A program made the translations under genes and the position numbers. DNA of 64,000 nucleotides from contig OX597821.1 in NCBI GenBank assembly GCA_951406725.2, forward strand, positions 14,446,001 to 14,510,000. The letters run 5' to 3'. Origin of the DNA: Octopus vulgaris. Taxonomy: Eukaryota. The notes below the pieces were generated by a model. The model did no database searches. It was not told the DNA's origin and saw nothing but the letters and a program-made list of their open reading frames with translations. Shown here piece after piece: positions 1 to 62,973 of this stretch (within the stretch, counting starts at the first letter, position 1; every line of letters starts with the position of its first letter).

Positions 1-128
1 AGTAACATAGAAAACATTTTATAACAATTTCTATAAATATATTTAGGTAAAAGTTTAAAGATTTTACATATTATACTGATTCTGTTAATTAAATGTCAAA
101 TAAAATGAAACAGTTTGAAAGCACTCAC

Positions 129-1205
129 CTGCATTGAAGTATCAGTTGAAGCTTGGGTCGTCATCCGATGCAAAGACTCCTCATCTATATCCAACAGGTT
201 GGTGTTGCTGGGATTTTCCTGATTCTCTTTGCAGTTGAAGTTTGTTGTTCCACCTTGCCCACTCAACTTGGGTGTATTGGGGTTTGAGCCCCGCATCACA
301 CAAGGCGGTGGTGAACTCATGGATTTCGTCTCCACACTGTTTGTATCCCAGTCGTTTCTAGGAACCTCGGAGGCAACATCCATTAAGTCGACACTTTTGG
401 CGAAGGCATCCCTCAGATTGACGGAGTGGAAGGAGACTATGCTTCCATTCCTCTTCGCCCGCTCGAGAGCCTCCTTACGTTTCAATGCTTTTTCTCTTCT
501 CATCTGATCTTTATAAAATTCGGCGAAATTATTGACAATGATTGGAATTGGAAGCGCAATAACTAGCACACCACAAATACAACATACGCCACCAACAACT
601 TTTCCCAGGATCGTCGTCGGGTAGATGTCACCATATCCTACCGTCGTCATAGTGATGGCAGCCCACCAGAATGTTTCGGGGATACTAACGTACTTAGTTC
701 CTGGTTCGTCTTTTTCCGCAAAGTAGGCAAGGCTTGAGAATAAGAGTATTCCAATGGCCAAAAACATCATTAATAGACCTAGCTCTTTATAACTTCTCTG
801 TAAAGTGTACCCTAAGGATTGCAGACCAGTTGAATGTCTTGCAAGTTTTAGAATTCGCAGAATTCTCATTATTCGAAAGATTTGCACCACTCTGCGGACA
901 TTTTGGAACTGTTCCGTCGTACTCTTGTTGGTCTCAGTCAATCCTAGGGAAATGAAATAAGGCATGATTGCCAATAGGTCTATAATGTTCAAAGGTCCTT
1001 TGAAAAATTTCCACTTATTCGGGGAGGCCCAGAATCGTCCCAGATATTCCAAGGTAAACCATCCAATGCAAACAGCTTCTACAATTGCAAGCTGTGGGTT
1101 ATCAGCCCCTTCCTGCTCTCCTTCACCTTTGAGCCCAGGAATTGTGTTTAATGTTAGCGCCACGGTAGACAGGACAATGAAGAGAATGGACACAATGGCC
1201 AAGAC
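129..1205 (-). CDS. Shab: Kv2/Shab channel, second coding exon (S1-S6, voltage sensor, pore, proximal C-terminus); the gene continues left of the window
   Basis: Acceptor TTTTCAG|GTC at 1206/1205 gives ...MAAR|VLAIVSILF. Contains S4 [29 protein letters not shown], filter [12 protein letters not shown] and Kv2-diagnostic S6 [11 protein letters not shown]. Donor CAG|GTGAGT at 129/128; 1077 nt = 359 codons, phase 0. Confidence 0.96.
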
Positions 1206-7900: not shown

Positions 7901-8211
7901 GACAGATAGACAGAGATAGGAAAAGAGAAACATAGATAGATAAAGAGGTACTCAGACAAAACACATGCATACATCCTTAACCCAATCCCACAGATATAAA
8001 TGCACTTTTTATATTTACAGTGCACAAGGCACATCATCTCCCATCTGATATTATAATCGAACCCACTGTGCTTCATATGCAGGTGAATAGTGAATGAGGT
8101 GACCTTTTTAGCATTGGTACCATTAAAATGCATCTCGTACACACTGTAAAGCAACTGGCGAATTTGTAGAGAATGTGTGGAGCTGTCACCAAGGTCTATT
8201 TAACCTCTAGT

Positions 8212-8593: not shown

Positions 8594-9120
8594 TCTATTT
8601 ATCCTCTGAATAAAATTCACCCAGTACACTGTAAAGCAGTTGGCAATAGGAAGGACATATTGCTGTAGAAACCATACCAAATAACATTATGCGTACCAGT
8701 ATGAGTAGCAGTAGTGCCCTGTAAAAAATGACTCTAGCTGTTTTAACTTGTCAGCATGGGTTAGACAGAGTGTACTGTGTGCATTTTCTCATTGCAACAA
8801 TGTTTGAGATGTTGGATAGATCTTGGCAAGACGCAGTTCAAAAGATCTCACAGCCTTTCACCTTCTCAGCTCATTTGTCAATCTGTTTACTGTGTGTATT
8901 GGAAGCACTTCTAGTCTCACTTACAGTTTACCTGTAGAGGAAATGCAGTAGATACCTCACAGCATAAGCACAGATGCTGGGGTGCCTTACACATGGGAAA
9001 AAAGAAACTGTAATCAGTAGACAAAGGAGGGGAAGAAATTACATCAGAAGAGATGCTTCATCAGCAGAACAGCAGAGAGAGTCATATGAAAATTACACTG
9101 TTTGTATATATATGTGTATG

Positions 9121-9540
9121 TATTATATAAAGGATCATGGGTAAGGCTAAAACAATGTGAAGTAAATCACAAGAAAACAAATATGTGAATTAATGTAGAC
9201 TGACCTTGTATTCAATATTTCGGGGTTATGACCCCATTTTCAAGAAATTGATGAATGTTGCTGATGTGCGTGTGTGTGAGCATGTGTGGAATGGACATGT
9301 ATGGAAAGGTATTGCTTTCGGGGTTATGACCCCTTAGCAACACCTTTCCATGCCTTTCCACTCCACACACAGGCTCACACACATGCACATCGGCAATATT
9401 CATCAATTTCTTGAAAATGGGATCATAACCCCGAAATATTGAATACAAGGTAAGTCTACATTAATTCACATATTTGTTTTCTTGTGATTTACTTCGCATT
9501 TACTTTGCATTGTTTTTACCCACGATCCTTTATACAATAT
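9121..9540. mobile_element. ~420-bp palindromic element with a variant (U3-A8) hammerhead motif on each arm
   Basis: Arms are near-perfect reverse complements about an axis at ~9326. HHR-like motifs at 9211-9246 (-) and 9408-9443 (+). Confidence 0.8.
9211..9246 (-). ncRNA. Candidate minimal hammerhead ribozyme, U3-A8 core variant
   Basis: Minus strand reads TTC-TTGAAAA-T-GGGGT cata ACCCC-GAAAT-ATT-GAA. Confidence 0.55.
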
Positions 9541-9583
9541 ATTTTACACAATGTTTGATAGTAATTATTCCATTATAACATAT

Positions 9584-9624
<41 letters not shown>

Positions 9625-14197: not shown

Positions 14198-14519
14198 CAT
14201 TATATACATTTGACGGATATTTGTCCTCATCTTGTATGTTGTTAACACATTTCGGCTAATATATACCCTCCAGCCTTCATCAGGTGTCTTGGGCAAATTT
14301 CGAACCTGGGTTCTTATTCCTAAGGTATTTTTCATTGTTGTTGTTATTATCATTATTATTATTATTGTTATTATTATTCAAGTCACTACTTGGAATCAAG
14401 CTCAGAATCTTAGGGTTAGTAGCCTGTTCTCTTAACCATGACACCATATGCCCAAGGGCGTAGTGGTTAAGAGCACGGGCTACTAATCCCTAAATTCCGA
14501 GTTCGATTCCAGGCAGTGA

Positions 14520-61053: not shown

Positions 61054-61887
61054 TATTGTTGTATATGTTTAAATACATTTTGAAGACTCAGGTAGAAGTC
61101 TGTCATCAGTTTTGAACCATTATTTCAAGGTTTATTACAAACCATTTGACCAAGTAAGATACCATATCTCAAAGTCTCAACTACAAAGAGATTCTGAGGA
61201 TAAGTAAATTTTGTTTTGATTTGATTTGATGAACTTGTACTCCATCAATTTGAAAGATATGGGGAAAACTTTATATTAATGGTTTAAAACTGGCAGCAGT
61301 CTTAAAATACTAAGTCCTCGTACCTTTTATGATTGTGTATATATGTATATTTATTATATATGAAAGGTTTCTTCTTCTGTGATGCGTAACTTATGATAAG
61401 TATATATACATACATACATATATTTACATATACATATATGCACACATACAATATATATATTTCAAATATGTGAAGATATTTATAATTTACATGTTTATAT
61501 ATATATGTATATATATATTATATATATATATATATATATACATATAGTGTGTGTGCAGAATATATATATATATGTAAGTATGTAATATGTATTTACTCAT
61601 AATTTTGTGAAAGACATTACACATAGAATACATATAACCATACGTGTATATACAGGTAAGTACAATTATATATTTATTTGAATACATAAAAATATTAATC
61701 ATTCAGTTTTTATACATTAAATTTTGAAGAATAATGAAAATCTGCAATAGAAAAATGCAAATTGCTTTTTAGATTATAAAAATAACATTTTAATTTTCCA
61801 AGTTCTTTTTCAAAACGTATTAACATAATCAAATGCATTCAAGAGAAATATTGAAATAATGTAATAAAAAGAATCCTTTTGACTTAC

Positions 61888-62973
61888 CCTCGCAGCCATG
61901 GACGTTGTCGGCTTCTCAAGGAGGTCCCAAACTCGTTGTCGCCATTTGGCAAACGAGCCGGTACCAAAATCTTCATCCTCTCCCTTTCGGAGACTCTCAG
62001 CCTCTTTGCGTATCTCCTCAAACACATGTTCTTTTTTCTGATGATATTTATGCTGACAACATGACTCTAAATAAAGTTCGTCTACACCCCAGTACTCCAA
62101 GTCCTCACTGAATGCCAGCACACACATTTCCTCCACCAAGTGAAGTTTTCCAGTGCGGTAAAAGTTGAGGATGGAGGCAAACGATCGAGGATGTCGATCA
62201 AAAAAGTATTCATTTTCGGCCAAGCTATAATCGTCACAAAGGTCAACAATTGCATCATGTGTATTACAGTCCCTCAGCTTACCAAGCCGAGTATGAGGCA
62301 TGCGGTCAAGAGTGCGCCACAATACCTCATGTTTTACCCCACCCACATTTAGGATAACACGTTTAGAAACTTCCCTACTCCTCAAAATTGAAGCCGGATC
62401 AGGAGGGCTTCCTATTGAGGATGTTGCATAGAAGGGTCGTTGCAGGGCCGACGACATGTCTCCTACTCCCACACCTACCACACTACCACTGCCAACACCA
62501 CCACTGCCAACTCCTCTGCCACCTCCTTGAATAGGAAGGTTATTGTTGCCTGCAGGAATAAGACTACCTGGAGGTTGCACGACTGCTGGAGACGCTGCTA
62601 GCTGTAAAGAACCACTAACACCACTCGTCACTACAGGATCAGCTATTTTCACTTCGGATCGACCTTGTTTAGCACGGAATGATCCTGATGTGGCTGTGGT
62701 TGGATCTCCCGCAGTCGTACTAGTTGAAGACAATAATGGTGGAGGATGTTGGTGGTGATGATGATGATGTGAGTGGTGATGTGGAAAATGGTGATGGTGA
62801 TCGGATGCCGCTGTGTTGGCCGATGATGTGGGGTCCCTTTTCCGAATTCCTATTGATGTGGGGTGTTGCTGTTGTTGGTGACGGAGCGAGGCGTTTCGAG
62901 ATGCTGCCAAGGATGTGGCTGAAGGGAGGTCGCTCCGGCGATCTGAGCTGGCTCCAGAGCTGTGGTAAAACAT
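61888..62973 (-). CDS. Shab: Kv2/Shab voltage-gated potassium channel, first coding exon (low-complexity N-terminus + T1/BTB tetramerisation domain)
   Basis: ATG at 62973-62971 with an in-frame upstream TAA at 63030-63028. Translation contains the Kv2-type T1 domain [29 protein letters not shown]...EYFFDRHP...[14 protein letters not shown]...[14 protein letters not shown]. It ends at donor AGG|GTAAGT (GT at 61887-61886); 1086 nt = 362 codons, phase 0. Confidence 0.95.

Follow-up and report, generated by a model that had tools for sequence, protein, structure and literature searches.

A U3-A8 minimal hammerhead motif on both arms of a palindromic repeat insertion, probably of PLE origin, in Octopus vulgaris

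Minimal hammerheads of PLEs and the octopus motif

Minimal hammerheads of Penelope-like element (PLE) repeats have an extra base between positions 9 and 10.1, a G10.1-C11.1 pair and a palindromic dinucleotide at 15.2-16.2, and helix I measures 2-5 bp in the published rows (PMC4209133). Such motifs occur in pairs on opposite strands, 100-700 bp apart, and their activity is nil as a monomer and low as a dimer (PMC4209133). The U3-A8 variant is found in the Cercyon family of Schistosoma mansoni, with about 1,300 matches (Cervera & de la Pena 2014, PMC4209133). Table row S. mansoni(4)* of that paper gives UUGAAAAA with a 3-bp helix I and U17, and rows C. remanei* and Latimeria(1)* have U-A with AUU. 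Natural U3-A8 hammerheads are also present in bacteria and phages, and such pairs are stated to be active in vitro (Perreault et al. 2011, PMC3088659). The hammerhead of Poseidon PAc from Anolis cleaves only with protein present; a double mutant of its 3-8 pair gives partial rescue, and cleavage is not required for insertion in vitro (Frangieh et al. 2024, PMC11167929). In PLEs, copies that are 5'-truncated and inverted are common at the 5' end (Craig et al. 2021, PMC8557442).

The octopus locus lies in a window, the whole 64-kb stretch of DNA analysed here, whose composition is that of AT-rich animal DNA with many TA/TG microsatellites. The features of the host gene, the palindrome and its motifs are as follows.

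96..1202, minus strand: exon coding for the Ion_trans domain of a potassium channel (Pfam PF00520, E 6.8e-55)
61810..62973, minus strand: exon coding for the BTB/T1 domain (BTB_2) of the same channel (Pfam PF02214, E 5.1e-31)
9118..9316, minus strand: left arm, a 5'-truncated family copy (self-match, arm alignment, family depth declining 5'-ward)
9335..9542, plus strand: right arm, a second 5'-truncated copy (self-match, arm alignment)
9211..9246, minus strand: minimal type I hammerhead, left copy, from sequence, with the architecture of PMC4209133; U3 9243, A8 9238, extra U 9236, H17 9214; helix II 9235-9222, GAAA 9221-9218, U-A step 9217-9216, U16.1 9215
9408..9443, plus strand: minimal type I hammerhead, right copy; U3 9411, A8 9416, H17 9440

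The palindrome is a head-to-head inverted repeat of about 425 bp at 9118-9542 (blastn self-match 85% over 434 columns), both arms of which point away from the axis. It sits inside the interval (intron) of about 60 kb that separates the Ion_trans and BTB/T1 exons, and the sense strand of its left arm is the minus strand, the strand of the host gene. From features of the translations we take both exon blocks to belong to one Kv2/Shab-type channel.

Both arms read TTC-TTGAAAA-T-GGG(G/A)TCATAACCCC-GAAA-TA-TT-GAA, which confirms the U3-A8 motif of hammerhead shape that a sequence-only reading of this DNA had described on each arm. In the core, where the consensus has (C/U)UGAN(G/A)A with a Watson-Crick 3-8 pair, both arms have U3-A8. 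One unpaired base (U 9236) lies between A9 and 10.1, followed by G10.1-C11.1 (G9235-C9222); GAAA is followed by the palindromic 15.2-16.2 step and U-H (GAAA-UA-UU), and a helix I of 3 bp by sequence, UUC/GAA, would close the motif. The published minimal-hammerhead consensus is matched at all positions except for the known 3-8 swap. The left copy keeps an intact UUGAAAA core and helix II, with a predicted cut after U17 (9214). Rfam gives no hammerhead match at the gathering threshold in the 64-kb window, nor any among the 15 matches to E 10 in 9050-9600; its matches at the palindrome are miRNA-type hairpins only, all below threshold. This confirms that such U3-A8 families are missed by Rfam and, as had been expected, by CUGANGA descriptors.

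The octopus motif resembles the Cercyon U3-A8 hammerhead of S. mansoni in being type I, with no real helix III and a short helix I, and it shares with row S. mansoni(4)* not only U3-A8 but the identical UUGAAAA heptamer (PMC4209133). The earlier view of the variant as out of the ordinary is not supported, since PLE minimal hammerheads with U3-A8 and this heptamer were reported in 2014 (PMC4209133); the literature on this class already contains U3-A8, an additional base behind A9, a palindromic U-A step and AUU, each of them individually. Unlike the Cercyon motif, the present one has a cephalopod host and a shorter helix II, of 4-5 bp. It also joins U3-A8 to U-A/AUU, a combination absent from the rows of PMC4209133 covered here, among which there is no cephalopod. 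The family shares with PLE minimal hammerheads its thousands of dispersed single copies and its opposite-strand pairs (PMC4209133), but this locus, as judged by eye from the translations, has no linked RT frame. The U3-A8 hammerheads of bacteria and phages have the same 3-8 covariation as here, but are full three-helix monomer ribozymes and not retroelement repeats (PMC3088659). Poseidon PAc, as a PLE hammerhead whose 3-8 pair has been tested with single and double mutants, is a model for weak, protein-assisted cleavage; its core, however, is C3-G8, with activity shown in that system (PMC11167929). A search of the open literature found no report of a cephalopod PLE hammerhead, and 'hammerhead' occurs nowhere in the main text of a paper on the repeats of Octopus vulgaris. 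The family may already be catalogued in Repbase/Dfam or in the subscription literature. With it, the U3-A8 class of PLE minimal hammerheads gains more than 1,000 copies, which occur under four organism labels.

The two arms and their repeat family

The two arms are identical at 178 of 198 aligned positions and differ at 20, with indels of 6 and 2 nt. Each has damage of its own. In the right arm G>A at 9422 weakens helix II, and in the left arm a change at 9202 falls in a donor-like GTAAGT, at a position where 96-99% of family depth has a different letter. A 10-nt tandem duplication that is complete in family contigs has suffered different small deletions in the two arms (9135-9165 and 9490-9525), which indicates that both decayed independently after insertion. 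The 10-nt deletion of the left arm also clips family contigs at 9160-9164, so that the family's outer end is unreadable there for the partial tandem (pseudo-LTR) and the optional 30-40 bp tail of PLEs. Both arms share the minor letter at 9252, where 80-91% of family depth reads C, and carry the same two transitions at 9301-9302 relative to the loose-end consensus; these shared letters favour a common origin of the two arms. No clean target-site duplication was found around the palindrome.

Beyond the motif, the right arm has the intact form of the donor-like site.

9447..9455, plus strand: splice-donor-like AAG|GTAAGT, from sequence, ten bases beyond the predicted cut site; damaged in the left arm at 9202

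This site may be the intron donor of a PLE 5'-UTR, although no matching acceptor or spliced read was seen. Its position after the ribozyme differs from that in D. virilis Penelope, where the intron ends at helix I.

The family was surveyed in the contigs of 4 of 24 public runs (X1, X5, X8 and X17), one for each of the organism labels A-D. The query was the 551 nt of left flank, left arm and axis, matches were taken at 80% likeness, and alternative letters were tabulated from 6%. Matching contigs number 1159, 1231, 893 and 601 in the four runs, and relative to the unique flank the summed depth at helix II is 2359-, 2494-, 1679- and 1445-fold, figures that give an order of magnitude and no true copy number. 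Free variation of TTGAAAA from copy to copy, which the sequence-only reading had named as evidence against it, is not seen: no alternative letter reaches 6% at U3 (9243), at A8 (9238), or at 9210-9220 and 9234-9247 in any of the four runs (601-1231 contigs each). Within the motif, the 23-row difference table holds only 9221 and 9222 (a CpG; 1-7%) and 9233 (4-6%), and flank sites such as 9185, 9209, 9250, 9252 and 9262 vary far more. Since U3-A8 and U-A/AUU are uniform in four runs, they derive from the source element and not from local decay. This uniformity shows inheritance rather than selection, because the 37-nt ribozyme has 3 variable rows and the 50 nt on its 3' side also have 3.

A better hint of selection comes from a sister set of contigs, which match 9211-9248 and diverge outside. 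Loose ends lie before 9211 in X1, X5 and X17 and behind 9248 in X5, X8 and X17, and depth falls by 13-20% between 9248 and 9249. Both groups of loose ends appear to belong to one sister family with the same core, new flanks and a 5-bp helix I. AAG|GTAA is also present in its divergent flank, among the loose ends before 9211.

Depth declines steadily toward the 5' side of the element (136,093, 73,682, 25,574, 9,249, 2,158 and 227 in X1), as expected from 5' truncation. Very few family contigs reach beyond 9316, and the loose ends give just 30 nt upstream. In addition to this gradient, the family has the inverted partners that are characteristic of truncated PLE copies. The 15 joints listed, of 19, are all between opposite strands, at scattered places and with an asymmetry of 32-82 nt; each is represented by one contig per run at about single-copy depth, and four recur in two or three runs, as expected of shared old insertions.

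Similar motifs were sought in viral and metagenome contigs. The exact family pattern has 0 loci in viral contigs. The general U3-A8 pattern has 16 loci in metagenome contigs, 10 of them in eukaryote-like contigs, with CG or TG at 15.2-16.2. Only three of these ten (L012, L013 and L014, the last two of the same sequence) have a helix I of at least 2 bp; they read UUGAAAA-U-GGGG..CCCC-GAAA-CG-UC, with 2-3 bp in helix I, and may represent additional U3-A8 families or else U3.G8 copies that have decayed. Given these helix I lengths, and as all are single copies, the metagenome loci were not counted as support, and no PLE-like protein was seen by eye among their frames of at least 120 aa. Four related phage-like contigs (L004, L006, L011 and L016) have an intergenic UUGAAAA-helix-GAAA motif (for example L006:4001-4039, plus strand), in which an upstream C-run can pair with the G-run too. 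Rfam has no match in 3700-4300 of L006. The phage-like motif is possibly a U3-A8 hammerhead of another type, or else a plain hairpin.

The axis of the palindrome

Between the arms, the axis contains a short piece of the hammerhead, enclosed by the halves of a native palindrome of the element.

9310..9341, no strand: fold-back junction, made of halves 9310-9316 and 9335-9341 of the native 14-nt palindrome with the insert between them
9317..9334, minus strand: locus-specific templated insert that copies helix II and GAA(A) of 9219-9236 in antisense

An exact second occurrence of the 18-mer of 9218-9235 lies 98 nt away, at 9316-9333, as had been noted before. With up to 3 mismatches it has 3 matches in the window (9218, 9316 and 9419) against 0.02 expected, and none of 100 shuffles reached 3. 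The axis had been described as a third partial copy of the hammerhead. This is correct for helix II and GAAA, which are present, but UUGAAAAU and UA-UU are not: the axis piece is GAAA-GCAA, without UUGAAAAU, U-A step, UH or core.

Family contigs that reach 9316 run on into ATAGCAACC and not into the 18-mer (10 contigs, agreement 0.91 in X8), and the same ATAGCAACC letters occur inside loose ends of X1 and X17. Together with the aligned letters before it, ATAGCAACC forms a native palindrome of the element that is perfect over 14 nt. Past the second half of this palindrome the window mirrors the left arm and leaves the native path. The earlier suggestion that the axis marks the fold-back point is supported, since the halves of the native palindrome flank the insert. 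Microhomology at the ends of the insert amounts to 1 nt on one side and, should 9334 be a later A>T change, to 2 nt on the other. Its left junction is covered by contigs of X1, X5 and X8 with 0-1 differences. Depth is 0 at 9332-9350 in all four runs, where no contig covers the axis, so that the insert is seen in the assembly only.

The axis insert, to judge from the family contigs, is no family trait and probably a one-off patch of this locus. Of the joints listed (15 of 19), one has one end at 9316 and none repeats the junction of the palindrome, so that inversion of other copies at the same hairpin, a possibility that had been raised for them, is not supported. The junction is most simply read as a fold-back at the native palindrome with a patch of 17-18 nt that would have been templated from helix II. 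Fold-back with microhomology is known to give short templated insertions at DNA breaks (PMC11724301), and a search of the open literature on the mechanism of PLE inversions found no report.

The native 14-nt palindrome (the family form of 9310-9341) also looks similar to an RFX X-box, and could be a promoter element of the repeat.

Origin of the insertion and its likely behaviour

The best explanation of the palindrome, with a probability of roughly 0.8, is a single old, folded-back insertion of a high-copy family of PLE pseudo-LTR ends, or of a non-autonomous derivative, with a U3-A8 hammerhead. The RNA motif and the insertion pattern point to the PLE origin; no RT or GIY-YIG reading frame was seen at the locus when the translations were read by eye. 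The compensated U3-A8 minimal type I hammerhead would have been inherited from the source element, whose RNA, like that of other PLE minimal hammerheads, may have shown weak cleavage after AUU by a double hammerhead, paired by way of the self-complementary A-U-A-U at 15.1-16.1 and probably helped by protein. During insertion the cDNA would have halted some 70 nt upstream of the ribozyme, at the native palindrome of 14 nt, then folded back and copied itself, which would give two equally truncated arms head to head. The axis 18-mer would have been copied from helix II, 98 nt away, either through a polymerase jump during that event or through later repair of the hairpin tip. The result is similar to the inverted, 5'-truncated PLE insertions described before in its head-to-head arrangement, AT/TA-rich target and lack of a clear target duplication. 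It differs from those covered in PMC8557442 in its equally short arms, its symmetry at a native palindrome, its templated insert and the absence of a coding body. The family, with its many dated inversion junctions, is usable material on how inverted PLE copies form.

The family might instead be a short non-autonomous hammerhead retroposon, retrozyme-like or SINE-like, and not a plain pseudo-LTR remnant, which would leave the model otherwise unchanged. In favour of this, the CA-rich DNA upstream of the ribozyme has a non-coding appearance, very few contigs pass 9316, and animal retrozymes have been proposed as derivatives of PLE pseudo-LTRs (bioRxiv 10.64898/2026.07.22.740005). Animal non-LTR retrozymes are, like this family, non-coding and PLE-related, with a type I hammerhead (bioRxiv 10.64898/2026.07.22.740005; Cervera & de la Pena 2020). 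However, retrozymes are by definition tandem units, each of which has its own hammerhead (bioRxiv 10.64898/2026.07.22.740005), whereas the locus has an inverted pair with an incomplete axis piece, and the 15 joints listed of 19 are all inversions and none tandem, even though a 551-nt query misses longer units. The retroposon is thus an unlikely account, but one with some claim to attention.

A more elaborate history of the insert within the PLE reading is improbable. After the stall at the palindrome, the RT could have jumped onto the hammerhead of a second element RNA, of which the insert would be a fossil, and the copied helix II hairpin could have turned the cDNA back. This partner RNA could have been held in a double hammerhead, or just cleaved, as might be suggested by the start of the copy 4 nt inside the predicted 5' cleavage product. 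If true, this would be a genomic trace of PLE hammerheads helping to make inverted insertions, a role not shown for them, and the many asymmetric inversions of the family would make it testable.

Since depth is 0 across 9332-9350 in every run, the axis and its 18-mer could also be an error of assembly that joined two family copies. Long hairpins are often under-sequenced by short reads, and the contig records pass a filter that omits some. Moreover, the 20 differences in 198 positions and the indels between the arms are unlike a fold-back read artefact, and the break is centred on the native palindrome. An assembly error is accordingly quite improbable.

A function of the motif at this locus has very little in its favour. 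The axis 18-mer had been proposed as a tandem partner for dimeric cleavage, or the ribozyme could cut the pre-mRNA of the host channel here. The left copy does lie in sense on the host strand, with core and helix II intact, and the insert lies 98 nt upstream of it in the same orientation. However, the axis piece, GAAA-GCAA, has no UUGAAAAU, U-A step, UH or core and can form neither half of a double hammerhead, which disposes of the tandem partner. The antisense arm is also transcribed first, and the ribozyme fold is predicted to cost 54-56 kcal/mol in context. The palindrome folds at about -297 kcal/mol with a helix II probability of 0.0 on both strands, and forcing the ribozyme fold in the full palindrome costs 53.8 (plus) and 56.4 (minus) kcal/mol. 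Even in a lone arm the formation of helix I is not predicted (P 0.002-0.004, ViennaRNA), and two copies give -10.4 kcal/mol as a double hammerhead vs -22.0 for the best cofold, although these nearest-neighbour energies leave the hammerhead core out of account. Dimeric PLE hammerheads are reportedly treated by Lunse et al. in 2017. The poor energies predicted for helix I of the lone arm and for the double hammerhead fit the weak activity reported for the class.

Equally hard to credit is a MITE or a fold-back DNA transposon as the identity of the palindrome, with an incidental likeness to a hammerhead. A near-perfect inverted repeat of 425 bp in TA-rich DNA would be in keeping with this, but fixed terminal inverted repeats, a matching internal structure and a fixed target duplication are not seen; copies are truncated on one side, their inversion points are scattered, the native sequence at the axis is different, and the published minimal-hammerhead consensus is followed throughout, the known 3-8 swap aside. 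Decay of a CUGAAGA core by two chance transitions, to U3 and to A8, has next to no likelihood and is refuted at the family level by the four-run letter table: both changes are transitions, and the agreement of the arms is not independent since they share one ancestor molecule, but C at 3 and G at 8 are both below 6% of depth in four runs of 601-1231 contigs each.

On the folded-back PLE insertion, the locus is concluded to be a fossil, with arms privately damaged at 9422 and 9202. Transcription of either strand yields the antisense arm first, which would bury the ribozyme in a duplex of about 200 bp and most likely leaves it inert. There is no sign of host function beyond this long intronic RNA duplex, which could be an ADAR substrate in neural pre-mRNA. 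A complementary role of the element in editing of the channel exons was considered and dropped, since the best complementarity with the two exons is only 24/30 nt (E 0.04), which is not convincing. Over 528-641 of the minus strand the channel exon gives an Rfam match to K_chan_RES, a potassium channel RNA editing signal, with 65.6 bits (gathering 51), which sequence homology of the S6 region alone may explain.

No further copies of the palindrome's repeat family were found within the 64-kb window. Upstream of the palindrome, two 19-nt look-alikes (89%) at 8141-8159 and 8626-8644 probably derive from a different dispersed repeat. Another minimal hammerhead, unrelated to the first, lies at 14240-14290 on the minus strand. 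Its core is the canonical CUGAUGA, it has one extra A and GAAA-UG-UG, and its helix II is longer. It adjoins an (AAT)n tract and has the look of a copy, now decayed, from a different PLE-type family.
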